Assembly: GCA_963618895.1 (NCBI GenBank) | Contig: CAVEUG010000003.1 | Coordinates: forward strand, 1-36,066 | Origin: Slackia isoflavoniconvertens | GTDB lineage: Bacteria; Bacillota_I; Bacilli_A; RFN20; CAG-826 | Direction: 5' to 3' | DNA: 36,066 nt | Made by a program: the position numbers and the translations under genes | Part shown: positions 3,052 through 22,269 of the stretch, in pieces | Numbering within the stretch: the first letter of the stretch is position 1 | Layout: each line of letters starts with the position of its first letter | Notes under the pieces: model-generated | The model's input: only the letters and a program-made list of their open reading frames with translations | The model's database searches: none | What the model was told of the DNA's origin: nothing

Positions 3052-6000
3052 ATGATATCTTATAAAGATTATCCAAAAATTAATAACGATCGTATTAATT
3101 TTTCAAAGATTAGTGGTAAATTACCTTTACCTTACCTTGTCGAAATTCAAACTGAATCCTATAAGAGCTTTTTAAGCAATGGTATTGATGAAGTTTTAAA
3201 AGATGTTTTTCCAATTAAAAACTATGCGGAAACTCTTTCAATTAACTATAGATCTTTCCATTTAGAGAAACCTAAGTATACGTTTGAAGAATGTAAGAAA
3301 AGGGATTTAACATATAGTGCTCCACTTAAAGTGACACTTTCACTTGAAGATAGTCAATCAGGTGAAGTTAAAGAATCTGAAGTTTTCATGGGCGATGTCC
3401 CTATCATGACTGATTCTGGTACCTTTATTGTTAATGGTGCAGAAAGAGTCATTGTTAGTCAAATTGTTCGTTCCCCAGGTGCTTATTTAAGTAAGACAAG
3501 TGATATTAAATCAGGTAAAGCAATTTATGAAGCTGATTTAATTCCAACTAGAGGAACTTGGTTACAATTTGAAAGCGATGCTAAAGACTTTTTGTGGGTT
3601 AGAATTGATAGACAAAGAAAAATGCCTGCTACAGTTATTTTAAAGGCTTTAGGTTTTGCTAATGAAAACGATATTATAAGTCTTTTTGGCGATAGAGAAA
3701 GCATTAGAAATTCATTATCAAAAGATACTGAAATTAAATCATCTTTAAACGCTTTAAAAGAAATTTTTAGAAAGTTAAAACCTGGCGAACCAATTACTGA
3801 TGATGGTGTCCATACTTTCTTATATCAAAAATTCTTTGATGCAAAGCGTTATGATTTAGGAAGAGCTGGTAGATTTAAGTATGCTAATAAATTAGGTATT
3901 TACAATCGTTTACCAGGTCGTATTTTGGCTGAAAATTTAACTGATGAAAACGGTGAAGTTAAATATAAGAAAGGCACTTTACTTACTAAAGAAATGGTTG
4001 ATGCCTTAAAAGATGATGAATTCTTTGAAAAAGGTGCTCATACTCTTGAATTACAAGTTAATACTAAACTTGATGATCATAGTAGAGTTAATTTAGTTAA
4101 AGTTTATGCTGATGAAAAGCGCGAAAAAGAATGTAATGTTATCGGAACCGATCTTAATTTAACAGTTGCAAGAGTCACAATTAGTGATATTGTTGCAATT
4201 TTCTCATACTTTATTAATTTAATGGATGGATTTGGTGATGTTGATGATATCGATCACTTAAGCAATCGTAGAATTCGTTGCGTTGGTGAACTTATTCAAA
4301 CTCAATTCAGAATTGGTCTTACTAAAATGGCGAAAAACGTTCAACAAAGAATGTCAACAACTGCTGGTATGGAAGTTAAGGAATTAACTCCACAATCATT
4401 AGTTAATGTTAGACCTGTAAATACTGCTATTCGTGAATTCTTTGCAAGTTCACAATTATCACAATTTATGGATCAAACTAACCCTCTTGCTGAACTTGCA
4501 AATAAACGTAGAATTTCAGCTTTAGGTCCTGGTGGTCTTACTCGTGATAGAGCAAGTATGGAAGTTCGTGATGTTCACTTTACTCACTATGGACGTATTT
4601 GTCCTATTGAAACACCTGAAGGTCAAAACATTGGTTTAATTAATAACCTTGCTACATATGCTAAAGTTGATCAATATGGTTTTATTAAGACTCCTTATAG
4701 AGTTATCGATAAGAAGACCGGAAAGATTTTAGAAGATACAATCTATCTTTCTGCTGATGAAGAAAATAACCACGTTATTGCTCAAGCAACTCGTGATGAT
4801 ATTAAAAATGGCGAATTAAATGGCGATAGAATCGTTGCTCGTTATAATGGAAAGAACGTTTTAGCTGAAAGAGAATATGTTGATTTTATTGATGAATCTC
4901 CAATGCAAATTGTTTCTGTTGCTGCTGCTTGTATTCCATTCCTTGAAAACGATGATAACACCCGTGCTCTTATGGGTGCTAACATGCAACGTCAAGCTTT
5001 ACCATTACTTAGACCACATGCTCCATTTGTTGGAACAGGTCTTGAACATACTATTGCTCACGATTGTGGTTTAGCTTTAATTGCAGCTGGCGATGGAACT
5101 GTTACTTATAAAGATGCAAAAACCATCAAAGTTCAAGAAAAGGATGGTGAAAGAACTTATGTTTTAACAAAGTTTGAAGGTAGTAACCAAGGTACATGTA
5201 TTAACCAAACTCCAATTGTTAAAAAAGGAGATAAAGTTAAGAAAGGACAAATCATTGCTGATGGTCCAAGTATGGAAAATGGTGACTTAGCCTTAGGTCA
5301 AAACGTAACAATTGCATTCATGACTTTTGAAGGTTACAACTATGAAGATGCCGTTATTATGTCAGATAGACTTGTTAAAGATGATGTTTATACAACTCTT
5401 CATATTGAATCTTATGAAGTTGAATGTAGAAATACAAAAAACGGTGAAGAATTAATTACCCCAGATGTTCCAAATACTTCATTAGAAGCAAAATCACATC
5501 TCGATTCTCGTGGTATTGTTCTTCCAGGAACTGATGTTAAAGAAGGAGATATTTTAGTTGGTAAAGTCACTCCACGTGGTGCAACTGAACCATCTCCAGA
5601 TCAAAAATTATTAGATGCTATCTTTGGTGATAAATCAAAAGATGGTAAAGATACTTCACTCCGTGTCCCACATGGTGGTGCAGGAACTGTCTTAGATATT
5701 AAAGTTTTCACTAGAGCTGATGGTGATGAACTTGCTCCAGATGTCAATATGAAAGTTAGAGTTTATATTGTTCAAAAGAGAAAGATAAGTGAAGGTGATA
5801 AGATGTCCGGAAGACATGGTAACAAGGGTGTTATTTCAAAGATTTTACCTGCTTGTGATATGCCATTCTTACCAGATGGAACCCCAGTTGATATCTTATT
5901 AAACCCACAAGGTGTTCCTTCACGTATGAATATTGGTCAAGTTCTTGAAGTCCACTTAGGTATGGCATGTAAGAAACTTGGCGGATTAAAAGTTGCAACT

Positions 6001-6695: not shown

Positions 6696-9600
6696 ATGTT
6701 TGATGTAAATAATTTAGCTAGTATAAAAGTCGGACTTGCATCTCCTGAAAAAATAAGAGAATGGAGTCATGGTGAAGTTACAAAACCAGAGACTATAAAC
6801 TATCGTTCACAAAAACCAGAAATGGATGGCTTGTTCTGTGAAAAGATATTTGGTCCTTCAAAAGATTATGAATGTCATTGTGGAAAATATAAAAAAGTTA
6901 GATATGCTGGTGTTGTTTGTGAAAAATGTGGTGTTGAAGTTATTTCAAAAGATGTCCGTAGAGAACGTATGGGTCACATCGAACTTGCAACTCCATGTTC
7001 ACATATTTGGTATTTGAAGGGCATTCCTTCAAGAATGGGTTTAGTTCTTGATATTGCTCCAAAACAACTCGAAGAAGTCGTTTATTTTACTGCTCATATT
7101 TGTATGAATCCAGGTACATCTAAAGTTTTATATTATAAAGAATTCTTAGATGATAATGTTGGAAGAGAAGTTTTTACAACTGCTATTAAAGAAATCCAAG
7201 AAAATTTATCTAATCAAGATTTAGGTGAATCAGTTGATTTTGCAAAAGCTCAAGAATTACTTGCTCACCTTGAAAATAAGGCTGAACCATTCGATTTCTT
7301 TGGATGCGCCGAATATATTACAGATCATACTGGAGCCGAATTTGGCGAAGGTGCTGAAGCAATTAAAAAATTACTTCATGAAGTCGATTTACAAAAAGAA
7401 TTTGATGATGTTAGCAAAGATATTAAAGGTGCAAAAGGTCAAAAACTTACCAAACTCACTAAGAGACTTGAAGTTTTAGATGCTTTCATTAAGTCTGGAA
7501 ATAAACCAGAATGGATGATTTTAGATGCACTTCCAGTCATACCACCAGATCTTAGACCAATGCTTCAACTTGATGGTGGTAGATTTGCTGCAAGTGATTT
7601 AAATGACTTATATAGACGTGTTATTTCACGTAATAATCGTTTAAAGAGATTAATTGAAATGAATGCTCCATATGTTATTTTAATGAATGAAAAACGTATG
7701 GTTCAAGAAGCTGTTGATGCTTTAATTGATAATGGACGTCGTAATGGAAAACCTGTTACTGGTCCATCAGGAAGAGCTTTAAAATCATTAAGTGGTGGTT
7801 TAAAAGGTAAACAAGGTAGATTTAGACAAAACTTACTTGGAAAACGTGTTGATTATTCTGGCCGTTCAGTTATTGCAATTGGACCAAGTTTAAAGATGTA
7901 TCAATGTGGTCTTCCACGTGAAATGGCTATCAATTTACTTAGACCATTTATTGCTGCTATTTTAATTAAAGAAGGGAAGTGTACTTTACACCGTCAAGCT
8001 GACAAGAAGATTGATGCAAAAGATGAAGATGTTTATGATGTTGTTGAAAAGATTATTTCTCAACACCCAGTCTTACTTAACCGTGCACCTACACTTCATA
8101 GACTTGGTATTCAAGCTTTCCAACCAATCTTAGTTGATGGTAGAGCAATCCGTTTACATCCACTTGTTTGTACCGGATTTAACGCTGATTTCGATGGTGA
8201 CCAAATGGCTGTCCACCTTCCAATTTCAAAGGCTGCTCAAGAAGAAGCTTTACACTTAATGCTTGCAAGTAATAACATTCTTGCACCAAAAGATGGAAAA
8301 CCAATTGTTACTCCATCTCAAGATATTCTTATTGGTAACTACTATTTAACAATCGAAGAATCTGCAAAAGATTTCTTAGATGAAGCCAAGAAATATAAAG
8401 CTTTAGGTGATGAAGAAATGTACGATCAATACGTTGCTTACAGTAAAATGGAAGGCAAAGTATTTAGAGATATTAACGAAGTTTATAAGGCTTATGATTT
8501 GAAGAAGATTCACTTACATACTCGTATTGCAATTCCAGGAAGAGAAATGAAAAAATCTGGATTTACAGATGAGATGAAAGAAAGTTATTTAATTACTACT
8601 GTTGGTAAGATGATTTTCAATTTAGTTTTCCCAGCAGATTTCCCATATTTAAATTCAACAAGTCCTGAGAACTTAAAAGATGATCAAATGAGATTCTTTG
8701 TTAAAAAAGGAACAGATATTGCTGAATATATCAAGAAACAACCTTTAAATTCTCCAACAAAGAAGAAAGATATTACTAATATTATTGATGAAGTCTTCCA
8801 TAGATATGGAACTCAAAAAACATCTGCTATTCTTGATAAATTAAAGGATAACGGATTTAGATTCTCAACAATTAGTGGTTTAACAATCGCAATTAGTGAT
8901 ATTAACGTTTTAGATCAAAAGAAAGATGTTATTAATTCTTCTGATTCTGAAGTCGAAAAAGTTGAAGTTTTATATAGAAGAGGTTATTTAACAGATAAGG
9001 AAAGACACGAAAAGGTCGTTTCGATTTGGACAAAATGTACAAATAAAATCGCTGATTCTGTTGCTGATGCCTTAAATAAAGATAAGCACAATCCATTATT
9101 TATCATGAGTGATAGTGGTGCTCGTGGTAGTAAATCTAACTTTACTCAATTAATGGGTATGCGTGGACTTATGGGTTCAACATCAGGTGAAACTATTGAA
9201 ATTCCTGTTAAATCTTGCTTCCGTGAAGGTTTAAACGTTGCAGAATTCTTTACTGGTACTCACGGTGCTCGTAAGGGTGGTGCTGATACCGCTTTAAAGA
9301 CTGCTGACTCAGGATATTTAACTCGTCGTTTAGTCGATGTCTCTCAAGACGTTATTATTAGAGAAGAAGATTGCCATACTGATCATGGTTCATTCGTATG
9401 TGATATTTACGATACAACACAAAATAGTTTAATCGTTTCACTCTATGATCGTTTAGTTGGTAGATTCTCATGCCACGACATTATTGATCCAAATAGTGGA
9501 GAAATTATTGTTGAAGGCAATACATTAATTGATGAAGTGTTAGCAAAGAAGATTGTTGATGCTGGAATAAAAAAAGTTGAAATTAGATCATTATTTGGTT

Positions 9601-16396: not shown

Positions 16397-16977
16397 ATAT
16401 ATTTATTTTCTTTCAAATAATTTAATAATTTTATAGAGGCAAGGTATCGATGAGATAACTTGTCTTTTTCAATTGGATCGAGTTCTGCATATGTTTTATT
16501 AATACCATCAACTTTGAAAACTGGATCATAACCAAAATCATCAGTAGCAACTATTTTTGATATCGTGCCATGAACTTCTCCAACAAATTCAATTGGCTTA
16601 TCTTCTACATTAATTAAAACGATTGAACAATGGAATCTAGCCTTACTTCCAAGATGATGCTCAACTAAATAATTTAAGCATTTTTCCGGGCCGCCCATTT
16701 CTTCCATATATCTATGGGAATAAATTCCTGGGAAATGTTCGCCTAATTCATCAATTTCTATCCCAGAATCGTCAGCAATAATTGGAAGATTAGTAAATTT
16801 TTTACAAGCCTCGCATTTAATTAAAGCATTTTCAAAAAAGGTTTTCCCTGTTTCATCTGGATCGATATCGATATTTAAGTCTTTTAATGAATATATTTTT
16901 ACATCATAATTTTTAAAGATTTCGCGAAATTCTTTAAGTTTGTGTTGGTTATTGGTTGCTAATAAAATTTCAAACAT
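16393..16977 (-). CDS. rdgB: RdgB/HAM1-family non-canonical purine NTP pyrophosphatase
   Basis: LATNNQHKLKEF, IADDSG.E...L...PG.YS.RY and GYDP.F motifs. GAGG SD. Confidence 0.9.
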   Translation of the reverse strand: MFEILLATNNQHKLKEFREIFKNYDVKIYSLKDLNIDIDPDETGKTFFENALIKCEACKKFTNLPIIADDSGIEIDELGEHFPGIYSHRYMEEMGGPEKCLNYLVEHHLGSKARFHCSIVLINVEDKPIEFVGEVHGTISKIVATDDFGYDPVFKVDGINKTYAELDPIEKDKLSHRYLASIKLLNYLKENKYI

Positions 16978-17168
16978 AGTTTTTACCTCTTTGAATATTA
17001 TATAAACTTTTCCAAAAAAACATATAAATTCCTGTTTGAAATTTTTGATGTCACATATGACTTTTTATGTTCCGTATTTGAAATTTTATATACGTTCTTT
17101 GATGTTTCTATAAATATTCTTAAATTTTATTCGATGATTACGCATAGAAAATATTATTTATATTTGTA

Positions 17169-17177
17169 TGATATAAT
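17169..17177 (+). promoter_or_regulatory. Extended -10 element (TGaTATAAT) immediately upstream of ogt
   Basis: TG at 17169-17170 and TATAAT at 17172-17177. The ogt ATG (17184) begins 6 nt after the hexamer, and no SD is present. Confidence 0.5.
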
Positions 17178-17183
17178 TTTCCT

Positions 17184-17702
17184 ATGTTAGATAAACCTTT
17201 TTACAAATACATATATACAACGCCAGCGAATTTTTCGAATTTAGTTTTAATAAGTGATGGCGAATATTTAGTTGGTTTATTTTTTGAACCACTTAAGAAG
17301 GAATCAAAGAGTAATAATAGCAACTTTAAAGAAGATGCATCCAAGTTTAAGGATGCCATCAAATGGTTAGATATTTATTTTAGCGGCGAAGAACCTAATT
17401 TTATTCCAAAATATAAAATTAATAATCTAACACCTTTTAGAAACGATGTCATAAATGAAATTAAGAAAATCAAGTATGGGAAAACATGCACATACGGAGA
17501 TATTTCTAAAATATTAGAAGCAAAATATAAAGTTAAGAAGATGTCTGCTCAAGCTATTGGTGGAGCGGTTGGTCAGAATCCTATTTGTATAATTATACCT
17601 TGTCATAGAGTTATTGGGAAAAACAATAAACTTGTGGGCTATGCTGGTGGCATTCAAAACAAAAGCGAACTTTTAAAACTGGAAGCATCAAAAAAAACAT
17701 GA
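17184..17702 (+). CDS. ogt: Methylated-DNA--protein-cysteine methyltransferase
   Basis: Active-site IIPCHRVIG followed by GYAGG, plus an Ogt-like N-terminal domain. Ends with a TGA stop. Confidence 0.92.
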   Translation: MLDKPFYKYIYTTPANFSNLVLISDGEYLVGLFFEPLKKESKSNNSNFKEDASKFKDAIKWLDIYFSGEEPNFIPKYKINNLTPFRNDVINEIKKIKYGKTCTYGDISKILEAKYKVKKMSAQAIGGAVGQNPICIIIPCHRVIGKNNKLVGYAGGIQNKSELLKLEASKKT

Positions 17703-17783
17703 TATTTAAAAAAATGTTAATTTTCATCAATTTTTTTAAAAATTTTTTGAATTCCCCTATTAATAGTAGGAGGGTAAAGTTTT

Positions 17784-17870
17784 ATGATAAAAAATGTAAA
17801 AATATTTTTAATATTGATTTCAAATTACCATTTTGGTAATATGAAATTAGTTTTTGGTGCGTTATTATGA
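17784..17870 (+). CDS. Candidate 28-aa hydrophobic micro-ORF (MIKNVKIFLILISNYHFGNMKLVFGALL)
   Basis: AGGAGGG at 17769-17775, about 8 nt before the ATG at 17784. The TGA stop (17868-17870) overlaps the ATG (17867-17869) of the next gene as ATGA. It may instead be non-coding promoter/operator DNA. Confidence 0.35.
   Translation: MIKNVKIFLILISNYHFGNMKLVFGALL
17814..17842 (+). promoter_or_regulatory. Candidate promoter plus palindromic operator of the HigB-like/HigA-ImmA operon
   Basis: TTGATT (17814-17819), 17-nt spacer, TAATAT (17837-17842). A perfect inverted repeat ATTACCA-ttt-TGGTAAT (17824-17840) fills the spacer and overlaps the -10. Confidence 0.45.
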
Positions 17871-18229
17871 AATATGAATATAGTCCGCCAAGACTAAAAA
17901 AAGAATATGAAGATGAACGTAAAATGAAGAAAAAATATGGAATTGAAATTTCTCATGGGATGACATTATTTCTAGATGCAGTAAACGCCTCGTTAAATGC
18001 ATATGATTTAATATCTTATAGATTTTTCATGATCGAACACCTTAAAGGGAATTTAAAGAACTATTATTCTTTAACTTTAGATAAGAAAAAAAGTAAATGG
18101 AGAATTTTAATTCAAATGTTAGATGATGAAGGAAATGTCTTAATTCCTTCTGATGATGAGATAGAATTTTTAAAAAGTGTTAGAAGAATTAGAATAAGGG
18201 AGTTAAGTGAACATTATGTCGAATATTAA
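17867..18229 (+). CDS. HigB-like (RelE-superfamily, plasmid-killer type) toxin candidate
   Basis: EHLKGNLKNYYSLTL...KWRILI and a terminal ...ELSEHYVEY resemble the HigB/killer signature (LKG-x4-Y-x-S-I..., WRI, ...DYH). It lies upstream of and overlaps a HigA-type HTH gene, which is the toxin-first order typical of hig loci. Confidence 0.6.
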   Translation: MKYEYSPPRLKKEYEDERKMKKKYGIEISHGMTLFLDAVNASLNAYDLISYRFFMIEHLKGNLKNYYSLTLDKKKSKWRILIQMLDDEGNVLIPSDDEIEFLKSVRRIRIRELSEHYVEY

Positions 18230-19289
18230 AAGATTGCATCCTGGGGTTCATATTAAAGCAAATTTAGAAACTATGGAAATGACAGCGAAGGAATTTTCTG
18301 TTAGGACAGGGATATCTGAACGTGTTTTGTCGCCAATTATTAATTGTAAATCTAACATTACTTTTGAAATCGCTTTTGAATTAGCACAGTTTTTCGGAAG
18401 TTCGGTTGAATTTTGGATGAATTTACAAAATCAATATGACTTATATATGTATGAAATAAAAAGAGATGAAGAATTGAAAAAAGAATTATTATTAGCAAAT
18501 AAAGTAAAAAAATATCTTTTAAGTATTGATGCAATATCTAATAGAGATGCAAATACTGAAATTGTTTTTAAATGTAAAAAGTTGATAGGTGTTAATGACT
18601 TAACGTTGTTGGATAAGAAAGATCCTTTTGCTTGCCTTAAAGAACAGCATTCCAATAAAAGTGTTGATTATTTTATGCAAAACTTTTGGATTGCTTTAGC
18701 TTTAAATGAGGCAAGAAAGAAAAATGGAATTCCATACAACAGAAAATTATTGGTTGATTCCATAGATGAAATAAGAGCGATGACCACACAAGATTTAGAT
18801 GTTTTTCTTCCAAGATTAAAGCAAATTTTATCGGATTGTGGCATTTCTTTTGTTCTACTTCCATATTTGACAAAATCAAATATTTATGGGGTGACTAAAT
18901 GGTTTAGTAAGGATGATGTTATGCTTGCAATCTCAAACAGGGGAGGTAGAGCAGATTTGTTTTGGTTCACTTTGTTTCATGAAATTTCTCATGTATTAAT
19001 GGAGCATAGAAGAAAAGCACTGGTTAATTTAGAGGGTAAAGAAGATGAAGAAGCTGATAAAATGGCAGAAGATATGCTTATTCCTAAAAAAGAATGGGAT
19101 AAATTTATAAACGAAAATAAATTTGATAAAAAATCTATAATTAGTTTTGCAAACAAAATTAATATTCTTCCTTGTATTATTCTTGGAAGATTGCATAAAG
19201 AAAAAAGCAATATAGTTCCTTATGGAAAATTTGATAAATCATTCAATATCTTCTATAAAATTACAAATTATATCGATGTAAAGCAATAA
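18207..19289 (+). CDS. HigA-family XRE HTH antitoxin domain fused to an ImmA/IrrE (COG2856, M78-like) zinc metallopeptidase domain
   Basis: The N-terminus HPGVHIK..L...MTAKEFS..TGIS...LS.IIN.K..IT.E.A..L..FFG.S.EFWMNLQ..YDL is the HigA/VapI signature. HEISH (HExxH, nt 18978-18992) followed by EEADKMAEDMLIP is the ImmA/IrrE signature. The start is ambiguous: GTG 18207 or ATG 18216. Confidence 0.85.
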   Translation: MNIMSNIKRLHPGVHIKANLETMEMTAKEFSVRTGISERVLSPIINCKSNITFEIAFELAQFFGSSVEFWMNLQNQYDLYMYEIKRDEELKKELLLANKVKKYLLSIDAISNRDANTEIVFKCKKLIGVNDLTLLDKKDPFACLKEQHSNKSVDYFMQNFWIALALNEARKKNGIPYNRKLLVDSIDEIRAMTTQDLDVFLPRLKQILSDCGISFVLLPYLTKSNIYGVTKWFSKDDVMLAISNRGGRADLFWFTLFHEISHVLMEHRRKALVNLEGKEDEEADKMAEDMLIPKKEWDKFINENKFDKKSIISFANKINILPCIILGRLHKEKSNIVPYGKFDKSFNIFYKITNYIDVKQ

Positions 19290-19292
19290 AAA

Positions 19293-19315
19293 ACACCAAC
19301 ATTATATATTGGTGT
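19293..19315. terminator. Bidirectional terminator hairpin shared by the HigA-ImmA gene (+) and tRNA-Gly (-)
   Basis: ACACCAA (19293-19299) pairs with TTGGTGT (19309-19315) across a 9-nt loop. An A-run lies on the 5' side. The flanking tracts are weak. Confidence 0.5.
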
Positions 19316-19329
19316 CAAATTAACATATC

Positions 19330-19403
19330 TGGAGCAGGTGACGGGAATCGAACCCGCATGACCAGCTTGGAAGGCTGGAGTTCTACCACTGAACTACACC
19401 TGC
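19330..19403 (-). tRNA. tRNA-Gly (anticodon UCC), CCA encoded
   Basis: The reverse complement GCAGGTGTAGTTCAGTGGTAGAACTCCAGCCTTCCAAGCTGGTCATGCGGGTTCGATTCCCGTCACCTGCTCCA folds as a cloverleaf. Acceptor stem GCAGGTG/CACCTGC, D stem GTTC/GAAC, anticodon stem CCAGC/GCTGG with loop CTTCCAA, T loop TTCGATT, discriminator U. Confidence 0.93.
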
Positions 19404-19413
19404 GCGCCTAAAT

Positions 19414-19442
19414 ATTATATTAGAAGAGTCAATATAATTCAA
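19414..19442 (-). promoter_or_regulatory. Promoter of tRNA-Gly
   Basis: On the minus strand: TTGAAT (19442-19437), 17-nt spacer, TATAAT (19419-19414). The -10 ends 10 nt before the mature tRNA 5' end. Confidence 0.65.
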
Positions 19443-19453
19443 GCGGTAGTTTC

Positions 19454-19768
19454 TTAGTTTAAGGAGCCAGTAACAAAGTTTTTAATGGTTTGTGAATCCA
19501 TATAACCAGTTGTTGCTTTAATTGCTTTCCCATCTTTAATAACAAAGATTGTTGGAACTGCACGAATATTAAATCTTGCTGCAAGTTGTTGGTGTTTATC
19601 AACATCTACTGAAAGGAATTGATAATCTTTTAATTCTTCGCTAACTTCTAAAAGGTTTGGATGTAACATTTTGCATGGGCCGCACCATGTAGCATTAAAA
19701 TCAACAATAGTTACTCCTCTACTTACTAATTCTTCAAAGTTTTCATTTGGTAATAATTCTTTAATCAT
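19454..19768 (-). CDS. trxA: Thioredoxin
   Basis: 104 aa with a WCGPCK active site. Strong SD (AAGGAG). Confidence 0.95.
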   Translation of the reverse strand: MIKELLPNENFEELVSRGVTIVDFNATWCGPCKMLHPNLLEVSEELKDYQFLSVDVDKHQQLAARFNIRAVPTIFVIKDGKAIKATTGYMDSQTIKNFVTGSLN

Positions 19769-20710: not shown

Positions 20711-21610
20711 TTATTTAGTAGCAAAAATTGAGATAACAGTCATTAAAACTGCAATAAAGTTATTAGTAATGTGGGCTAATATAGATGCTTCAAGTCCTTC
20801 TTTATCGTAGACATAACATAGGATTAATCCAGAAATCACATATGATGGAATGTTGATTAGTTCAACTTTTAACGCATCGCTATTTCCAAACGTGGTGAAA
20901 TCAAAATGGATAAATCCAAATATAATTGCAGCAATTATATAAGCGATAATGCGATTATATCTTCTTAATAAACTAAATAGCCCTAAACGATAACCTAGTT
21001 CTTCGCAAAATGGTCCAATAAATGAAAAAACAATAATAGATAGAACAGGGAAATTTGCGATTATACTATTAATTGCATTTTCATTGTTGTTGCTCCCAAC
21101 ATTTCCAAATGCTACGCTTGAAAAGGCATTATATAAAGCAGAAGCAATAATAAGAAAAAAACCATATGCGATGCCATATATCCAAGTTCTTCTTTCTTTA
21201 TATTTAAAGAAAACTTTAACAACATCTTTATTTAAAATTATTAAGCAAATACCAAATGCTACAAGATAAATAGAAAAATTTATCATAGCATTTCCAGCAA
21301 CTGAATTTAAAAAATATGGGTTAATTAAAATAGTTATAAATTGGAATATAAAAGAAATTGCTGTTAAGCCTAATATGAGCATTAAAAATAAAGATATTTC
21401 TTTTGGAATTGCTACATCTCTTCGATCTGCAAAAACGAGCCATCGTGGTTTTGTTTTAATTTCTTCTTTTTCAATTTGAGGTTCTTCTTCTTTAGTTTCT
21501 GTGAAAGTCTTTTCTTTGTTTTCTTCGATATTGAAGCCACAATATGGGCATTTTTTTAAATCTTCATCAATTAATAAACCGCAATTTGGGCATTTTTTCT
21601 TTTCGTTCAT
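20711..21610 (-). CDS. CPBP-family (CAAX/Abi) intramembrane glutamic protease with an N-terminal zinc ribbon
   Basis: CPNCG...CPYCG ribbon and an acidic linker, followed by CPBP motifs: EELGYR (in FCEELGYRLG), FGFIHF and HITNNF. Confidence 0.85.
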   Translation of the reverse strand: MNEKKKCPNCGLLIDEDLKKCPYCGFNIEENKEKTFTETKEEEPQIEKEEIKTKPRWLVFADRRDVAIPKEISLFLMLILGLTAISFIFQFITILINPYFLNSVAGNAMINFSIYLVAFGICLIILNKDVVKVFFKYKERRTWIYGIAYGFFLIIASALYNAFSSVAFGNVGSNNNENAINSIIANFPVLSIIVFSFIGPFCEELGYRLGLFSLLRRYNRIIAYIIAAIIFGFIHFDFTTFGNSDALKVELINIPSYVISGLILCYVYDKEGLEASILAHITNNFIAVLMTVISIFATK

Positions 21611-21663
21611 TGTTTTTACCTGTCAATAATTATACTATAATTATTGTTGAAAGAAATATTTAT

Positions 21664-22269
21664 ATGGAATTTGTAATTAAAGATTTTTATGAAAATGAGA
21701 TTGATGTAGAAAAATCTAAATTTATAACATATTTTTTCCCGGTTTCTTCTAAAGAAGATTTTCTTTTGCAATTAAATAGAGTTAAAAAAGAGCACAATAA
21801 AGCAAGACATCATTGTTATGCATATAAAATTAATGGAGAAATAAAATATTCTGATGATGGAGAACCCCAAGGCAGTGCTGGAAAACCAATTTTGTCCGTA
21901 ATTGAAAGCAAGAATCTTAATAATTGTGCAATTGTTGTTGTCAGATATTTTGGCGGGGTGCTTCTTGGGAGCGGAAGATTGCTTAGAACCTATTCATTAA
22001 GTGCTTCATCAATTGTTTCTATAGCAAAATTTTATGAAATTATCGAAGAAAATGAAATTTCAGTGGAAGTTGAATTAGATTATTATGATATTTTTAAAAA
22101 TTATCTTTCTAAAAAGCATTTTCTTATTAAATCAACTATCTTTAATGATAAAATATCTATAGTTTTTTATACGCCTTTAAATTTTAACGATGATTTGGAT
22201 TCGATGTTCTATCCAAAAGTTAAAATATTAAATAAGGAAGTAGTGAAACGTGCAAAAGAGGTTATGTAA
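21664..22269 (+). CDS. yigZ: YigZ/IMPACT-family protein
   Basis: KSKFITYFFPV..., ...ARHHCYAY...DDGEPQGSAGKPIL motifs. Start moved to ATG 21664, because the ORF-track start at 21544 would overlap the divergent CPBP gene. Confidence 0.85.
   Translation: MEFVIKDFYENEIDVEKSKFITYFFPVSSKEDFLLQLNRVKKEHNKARHHCYAYKINGEIKYSDDGEPQGSAGKPILSVIESKNLNNCAIVVVRYFGGVLLGSGRLLRTYSLSASSIVSIAKFYEIIEENEISVEVELDYYDIFKNYLSKKHFLIKSTIFNDKISIVFYTPLNFNDDLDSMFYPKVKILNKEVVKRAKEVM

Follow-up and report, generated by a model that had tools for sequence, protein, structure and literature searches.

We analysed a stretch of bacterial DNA of 36,066 nucleotides (nt), positions 1 to 36,066 of contig CAVEUG010000003.1 (assembly GCA_963618895.1, deposited as Slackia isoflavoniconvertens), which is called the window hereafter, and focused on a small cassette that lies there between ogt and a tRNA-Gly gene. 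The cassette comprises two overlapping genes, called A and B here. Gene A encodes a protein with a predicted RelE/HigB fold, and gene B encodes a HigA-like helix-turn-helix (HTH) module that is joined in the same polypeptide to an M78 (ImmA/IrrE/CapP-like) zinc peptidase. We propose that the two genes make up a self-repressed cassette of the toxin-antitoxin (TA) type, in which A is the toxin and is freed when the peptidase, once triggered, inactivates the HigA module, a reading to which we give an about even chance of being right. An earlier account of the window, made from the letters alone and called the preliminary description below, had pointed to this place as a candidate TA/defence system. 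This label is a fair one.

The two proteins

The call of gene A as HigB-like in the preliminary description, and the Pfam family PF05015 (HigB-like_toxin) named there for it, are both borne out. Gene A itself matches PF05015 at 23.7 bits, under the gathering score of 27, whereas relatives of A match it at 31.9 and 27.4 bits, and it is the sole family that is matched consistently. No NCBIfam match was found for gene A, and no PADLOC model is matched by gene A at E <= 1 or by three of its relatives at E <= 0.01. Because the profile of gene A gave nothing meaningful against PDB sequences (best E = 1.5), a fold search was needed. With the AlphaFold2 (AF2) model of A, which has a predicted local distance difference test (pLDDT) score of 90.3 with an alignment of 34 sequences, the top seven Foldseek matches in the PDB are all of the RelE fold, with modest E-values of 4.8e-3 and weaker, and include P. 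vulgaris HigB free or on the ribosome (4mct_B with a probability of 1.0; 4ypb, 4w4g), YafQ and an H. pylori toxin. Judged from this model, A is a RelE/HigB-fold protein. Across the family R79 and Y117 are invariant and H58 and H116 are nearly so, and the four positions are kept in distant partners as well, as in CHPLRGD...YRLIF...SKHY; they presumably correspond to the catalytic constellation of HigB. In one relative, a metagenome-assembled genome (MAG) from NCBI (L004; loci are designated by L and a number), gene A has an apparent frameshift in a run of A residues close to the 3' end (4940-4980), so that the product has 108 aa and is without the SEHY tail; this reflects either an error in sequencing or the inactivation of the toxin.

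For gene B, the preliminary description had proposed a HigA HTH and, in the same protein, an HExxH peptidase of the ImmA/IrrE type, and both halves of the proposal hold. At the N-terminus, TIGR02607 (HigA) is matched at 67.4 bits against a cut-off of 47.7, a profile search of the PDB finds 3cec and 3trb at 1e-17 to 1e-16, and Foldseek with the AF2 model (pLDDT 87.2) finds the HigA structures 3trb, 4mct and 6cf1 with root-mean-square deviations of 0.7-2.3 A and a target-normalised TM-score of about 0.8. At the C-terminus, Foldseek finds CapP 7t5t (E = 5e-3, 172 columns) and PprI/IrrE 8sln. The peptidase family PF06114, also named at the outset, is matched at 18.7 bits, under its gathering score of 22, and precomputed PF06114 matches are present in many members of the B family. 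Thus the sub-threshold Pfam calls of both A and B are backed by family members, by predicted structures and by fold searches. The HEISH motif is followed downstream by EEADKMAEDMLIP; H255, E256 and H259 do not vary among either 48 close or 79 diverse members of the family, and position 277 (nt 19044-19046), where the subfamily of B has D and 96% of the wider family (79 members) have E, is likely to provide the third zinc ligand.

Between the HTH and the peptidase lie a helical region and a loop (aa 139-147) with pLDDT below 50, where a motif hydrophobic-x-[FYL]-[RK] is conserved across the family; its position 142 is R in 91% of the 79 diverse members and K in the subfamily of the window. The loop is, speculatively, a candidate cleavage site.

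In the PADLOC collection, the best match of B by far is PD-Lambda-2_B (PDLC03982; E = 8.5e-28, aa 12-338 against 60-382 of the 402 model positions), a model that family members match at 2e-29 and 2.5e-47, while the RmrA, CapP and Lit models cover the peptidase core of B only. The search in PADLOC, which the preliminary description had suggested, thus gives a clear relative for B and none for A.

The ratio of non-synonymous to synonymous substitution rates (dN/dS) is 0.15-0.22 for gene A and 0.08-0.15 for gene B. Gene decay is rejected on these values, which correspond to purifying selection on both genes.

Spread and pairing of the two genes

B-like proteins give 201 matches in a 90%-identity database and, at E <= 1e-30, fall into at least 308 clusters of 50% identity. 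Relatives of B number at least 561 among the GTDB species representatives, where they are found in Mollicutes and Bacilli MAGs, Lachnospiraceae, mitis-group streptococci, Bacteroides, spirochaetes and Gammaproteobacteria, and they occur in at least 112 IMG/VR viral contigs. A gene of the A type lies directly 5' of B and ends at the B start in 72 of 80 genome loci and in 77 of 80 viral loci. The A-B pair is therefore a conserved unit across phyla, phages and plasmids. Two plasmid pairs that we inspected carry the RefSeq labels 'RelE/ParE family toxin' and 'HigA family addiction module antitoxin'.

The idea of a third conserved gene is rejected: the genes 3' of B in the 80 genome loci are mutually unrelated. 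Examples of genes in this position, plasmid loci included, are AbiH, PIN/VapC, Fic and UDP-GlcNAc epimerase-like genes. In a Salinisphaera MAG (L063, 1048-2973) an overlapping PIN/VapC-like gene directly follows B, and on the D. radiophilus plasmid pRadio3 (L153, 1652-4450) an overlapping Fic family gene does so. With such a third gene of toxin type after it, B may serve more than one effector.

Among the side observations on single loci, a 64%-identical A-B pair (L005, 1-11059) is found in a setting like a defence island, with two trypsin-like proteases, an AriA/GajA-like ATPase, AbiH and a GajB-like UvrD helicase as neighbours, the pair itself lying between the AriA/GajA-like, AbiH and GajB-like genes. 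In the human gut phage NatCom_34192 (L152, 2133-3523) a full-length B homologue of 32% identity lies between the large terminase and portal genes, and the place of the single A gene before it is taken by two small open reading frames (ORFs; 49 and 52 aa), which may be a split A.

These contexts bear on whether the pair would be a plain addiction or stress module that has no anti-phage role and would stabilise the segment with ogt or tune growth, with the peptidase acting elsewhere or controlling the turnover of B. Such a reading agrees with the housekeeping neighbourhood in the window, which is without other defence genes, with the retention of the module at its site in three related lineages, and with the naming of such pairs as type II TA by the Prokaryotic Genome Annotation Pipeline (PGAP). 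It agrees less well with the pair in the defence island of L005, with the relatives in viral contigs and the phage moron between terminase and portal, and with the defence of the single tested relative, PD-lambda-2, against lambda-vir (PMC9519451). We thus consider it unlikely that the cassette is of this kind.

Exchange of gene A and the HigA module as one block

One related locus, L090, has the module at the identical site with a mosaic allele. Between about 17935 and 18635 of the window (about nt 200-900 of L090) the DNA identity is just 60-80%, while the flanks, the promoter region and the rest of B are 92-100% identical. At the protein level, the identity is 67% for aa 26-120 of A, 61% for aa 1-95 of B, 71% for aa 96-140 of B and 97% for aa 141-357 of B, which places the breakpoint at the disordered loop between the domains of B. 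As read from this alignment, A and the HigA module have been exchanged as one block, with the protease module unchanged. Such a joint swap would be expected if A bound the HigA module, and it fits a co-adapted binding pair. Within the divergent block the HTH stretch MTAKEFSxRTGISERVLSPIINCK of B is nearly unchanged, which is in line with the operator being unchanged between the window and L090.

Promoter, operator and the micro-ORF

Upstream of gene A, an element TTGATTT[CT]AAATTAC-N7-GTAA[AT]AT is found at a fixed distance from the A start in L004, L005, L010 and L012, which lie in unrelated genomic contexts, and in partial versions in L013 and L091. The inverted repeat AAATTAC-N7-GTAAT that it contains occurs once or twice upstream of A in all six of these loci, relatives often have an extra AAATTAC-N7-GTAATTT copy further upstream, and the copy in the window is the sole occurrence in the 36 kb. 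The promoter region is 98.8% identical to that of L001 and L090, although gene A is just 79% identical to that of L090. By analogy with the operators of HigA, the palindrome is presumably the binding site of the HigA HTH of B. A consensus promoter scan does not list this conserved promoter, because it matches the consensus at 8 of 12 positions by our own count, and gives 11 other matches against 11.1 in shuffled sequence; the promoter call therefore rests on conservation.

The preliminary description had counted a 28-aa micro-ORF upstream of A as a third part of the module. The ORF crosses the conserved -35, the operator and the -10, so that a transcript from the promoter would start 3' of its ATG. 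A three-part system, with the micro-ORF translated as a coupling leader peptide or as a small hydrophobic effector, would draw on its Shine-Dalgarno (SD) sequence AGGAGG, which with a free energy (dG) of -10.7 is among the strongest in the window and stands beside a weak SD of A (dG -5.1), on its ATGA junction with A, and on the interval between ogt and A, which holds no predicted terminator; with these features, read-through transcripts could use the micro-ORF as a coupling leader. It is intact with its ATG in this lineage only (the window, L001 and L002), with the same DNA in L090. By contrast, L004, L010, L013 and L091 are without the micro-ORF, and gene A there is immediately preceded by an AGGAGG of its own, as in other relatives. 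Among 133 distinct loci, just 9 have an ORF of 20 aa or more that ends at the A start, and the ORFs of L005 and L012 resemble the micro-ORF solely over promoter-encoded residues (ISNYxFGxMK), with differing start sites. The single substitution in the micro-ORF within the lineage is non-synonymous, no Pfam match was found for it, and its ATGA junction is an automatic consequence of A opening with ATG-AAA (Met-Lys). The three-part system is thus very improbable. The micro-ORF is probably no gene and at most a lineage-specific leader ORF on read-through transcripts from ogt; it is most likely DNA of the cassette promoter and operator, outside the module and its mechanism.

Proposed mechanism

Based on these data, the cassette would work as follows. 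The HTH of B would bind the palindrome and repress the operon, and A would bind the HigA-like module of B (aa 1 to about 138), so that A and B would hold each other inactive. A trigger, for which phage infection or DNA damage/single-stranded DNA are candidates as for ImmA, IrrE and CapP, would activate or redirect the peptidase. The repressor/antitoxin module would then be inactivated, possibly by a cut in the inter-domain loop, and the freed A would arrest growth by ribosome-dependent cleavage of mRNA, leading to abortive infection or to stabilisation of the segment. In a more specific version, the M78 domain would cut the loop around aa 139-147 of B itself in the manner of LexA, in cis or in trans. 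The HigA module would thereby be cut off, which would lift the repression and free A. In this version, too, A and the HigA module would together determine specificity and could be exchanged by recombination without the protease module, as is suggested by the mosaic allele of L090. We regard this version as rather improbable.

Several points weigh against the proposal that a triggered peptidase frees A. IrrE and CapP have an extra C-terminal (GAF-like) sensor domain, which B appears to be without, judged from the all-helical C-terminus of its model. The SD of A in the window is weak where relatives have a strong one, and A and B both fall below the gathering thresholds of their Pfam families. 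The main difficulty comes from PD-lambda-2 of E. coli ECOR42, an abortive-infection system composed of a HigB-like gene, a HigA::peptidase gene and a third gene (Vassallo et al. 2022, PMC9519451). There, the B protein alone was toxic and A rescued the cells, and the third gene, PD-lambda-2C, which is P4 antitoxin-like, was required for defence (PMC9519451). At the present locus the third gene is absent, and PD-lambda-2A belongs to PF09907 (HigB_toxin; the paper's supplement, PMC9519451), a HigB family other than that of our A, which matches no PADLOC model.

The same precedent leads to the reversed polarity, in which B is the toxic effector, for instance a protease acting on a host or phage protein, A is its inhibitor or sensor, and infection frees B. 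The near full-length homology of B to PD-lambda-2B and the invariant HExxH site across the B family are consistent with this. On the other side, A keeps the His/Arg/His-Tyr positions and is under purifying selection, and the partners of Xre-COG2856 fusions include the unrelated RNase folds RelE and PIN (PMC2701414), as would be expected of interchangeable effectors. Moreover, L063 has both a HigB-like and a PIN gene around B, PD-lambda-2A is from a Pfam family different from that of A, and the toxicity seen when a protease is over-expressed may be artefactual. We therefore take the reversed polarity, the main rival of our proposal, as a real but doubtful possibility, and favour A as the toxin because of its conserved residues and because the fusions are paired with unrelated RNase folds.

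The accessory segment and its surroundings

The positions of the features are collected in Table 1.

Table 1. Features in and around the A-B cassette (positions in nt of the window)
Feature	Position	Strand	Remarks
ogt (methylated-DNA-protein-cysteine methyltransferase)	17184-17702	+	PF01035 E = 1.6e-26; TIGR00589
Micro-ORF, 28 aa	17784-17870	+	SD AGGAGG at 17768-17773; probably no gene
Predicted promoter	17814-17842	+	From conservation; -35 TTGATT at 17814-17819, 17-nt spacer, extended -10 TGg-TAATAT at 17834-17842
Putative palindromic operator AAATTAC-N7-GTAAT	17822-17840		Within the promoter spacer and -10
Gene A, 120 aa, predicted RelE/HigB fold with N-terminal helical extension	17867-18229	+	Putative ribosome-dependent mRNase toxin
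Gene B, 357 aa, HigA-HTH :: helical region :: M78 (ImmA/IrrE/CapP-like) zinc peptidase	18216-19289	+	
Inter-domain loop of B, aa 139-147 (ACLKEQHSN)	18630-18656	+	Predicted disordered
HEISH zinc-binding/catalytic motif of the M78 domain of B	18978-18992	+	
Hairpin with T-run, likely tRNA-Gly terminator	19292-19316	-	Abuts the B stop codon
tRNA-Gly(tcc)	19330-19403	-	ARAGORN; Rfam RF00005 72.1 bits
Variable segment: Ham1-ogt intergenic region, ogt, promoter, A, B	about 16978-19329		

The three reading frames given in the preliminary description (17784-17870, 17867-18229 and 18207/18216-19289) are present, and so is the ATGA overlap of the first two. In an alignment of 48 homologues the family N-terminus is M-[SA]-N-I-K-R-x-H-P-G. 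The most likely start of B is therefore ATG 18216, and the overlap of A and B is thus most likely 14 nt and not 23 nt.

The module is at the identical site in the close relatives L001 and L002 (B 95% identical) and in L090 (B 84% identical). In two more distant relatives, L093 and L094, for which the empty site was located in metagenome contigs by way of the TraX-like neighbour, tRNA-Gly runs straight into Ham1 with gaps of 302 nt (7376-7677) and 63 nt (7368-7430), respectively, the flanking order M24-ParA-Impact-Rce1-TraX-trx-tRNA-Gly-Ham1 being retained. The DNA homology of both to the window ends at about 19327-19330, the 3' end of the tRNA, and resumes at 16978, the start of Ham1, and tblastn finds ogt, A and B all absent at this site. 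Thus the segment is accessory with ogt included, so that the insert is real, as first proposed, but is bigger than the 17703-19329 given then and takes in ogt, which shows no linkage to A-B in the further loci with gene lists that we examined.

The adjacency to tRNA-Gly, to which the preliminary description had drawn attention as a classical integration hotspot, is confirmed: the tRNA gene, 100% identical in L001 and L090 and the sole match of an Rfam scan, lies 40 nt past the B stop codon on the minus strand. As was also stated there, the locus is without an integrase, and a search for repeats of the 3' end of the tRNA finds none, in our case for its last 12-20 nt with up to 2 mismatches on both strands of 16801-19330. 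The hairpin beyond B is the sole terminator-like site within 17500-19500, and it seems to be part of the inserted segment, because the sequence after the tRNA differs in L093 and L094.

It is also noted that, further along the window, an Rce1-like ORF (20711-21610, minus strand) and an Impact_N-family ORF (21544-22269, plus strand) overlap head-to-head by about 67 nt. The start of the latter as listed is probably too far upstream, since the Impact call in L001 is about 120 nt shorter (201 aa).

Comparison with known systems

The cassette shares with canonical HigBA (P. vulgaris, PDB 4mct) the toxin-first gene order, a toxin of RelE fold, the HigA HTH and a palindrome in the promoter. It differs in that B, with its added helical region and M78 domain, reaches 357 aa, compared with an antitoxin of about 100 aa, and in that A is extended by a helical part at the N-terminus and has the motif S-x-H-Y at the C-terminus, the counterpart of which in P. 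vulgaris HigB we take to be D-Y-H.

In ImmA/ImmR, IrrE (PprI)/DdrO and CapP/CapH, a signal-activated protease cleaves its repressor. These pairs have in common with B an M78 HExxH peptidase and an XRE-type HTH, and B aligns to the CapP and PprI structures; by contrast, in B the protease and the HTH form one polypeptide that is coupled to a toxin-like gene.

RosmerTA is likewise a defence system of TA type, in which RmrA has an HTH and an M78 peptidase. A toxin like RmrT is absent here, the partner of B having the RelE fold, and the RmrA models match the peptidase core of B only (aa 224-303, E = 1.8e-8). Membership in RosmerTA is thus rejected, and the link to it that was suggested at first is a weak one.

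An earlier general description is that of Makarova, Wolf and Koonin (2009), who found Xre-COG2856 fusions in predicted operons with RelE and PIN toxins and proposed that such operons are TA systems with an added protease-based regulatory layer (PMC2701414). The present locus, where a fused Xre HTH-HExxH protein is in an operon with a gene of the RelE superfamily, is of the same class. That class was defined by gene neighbourhood only, to which the present analysis adds, for one subfamily, a conserved operator, a domain boundary and a mosaic allele. The COG2856 tests in S. pneumoniae concern separate, unfused genes.

With PD-lambda-2, the cassette has in common that a HigB-like gene comes first and is followed by a HigA-HTH::M78 gene, that B matches PD-Lambda-2_B over about 320 of 402 positions, and that both are TA-like and mobile. 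The differences are that the best family of A is PF05015 and not PF09907, and that no C gene is present, B being followed by 40 nt and then by tRNA-Gly. The locus is therefore not PD-lambda-2 as defined, because the profile of B is matched but that of A is not and the C gene is lacking, and by our reading of its rule PADLOC would not call the locus PD-lambda-2.

The preliminary description had taken the pairing of a HigB-type toxin with such a fusion as undescribed. This does not hold, since the pair is already covered by the survey of 2009 (PMC2701414), by PD-lambda-2 in 2022 (PMC9519451) and by the RefSeq labels on plasmids. The locus is an ordinary instance of an abundant, under-studied family and not a new kind of system. 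Our literature search for PD-lambda-2 or for HigB and M78 pairs returned surveys only, with no mechanistic follow-up found, and the behaviour of PD-lambda-2, the sole tested relative, is unexplained and counter-intuitive. The operator, the domain boundary with its conserved loop, and the mosaic allele that pairs A with the HigA module provide handles on the identity of the toxin and on the role of the protease. Finally, we note that it is the two-gene core, rather than the three-gene layout of PD-lambda-2, that is the widespread unit.

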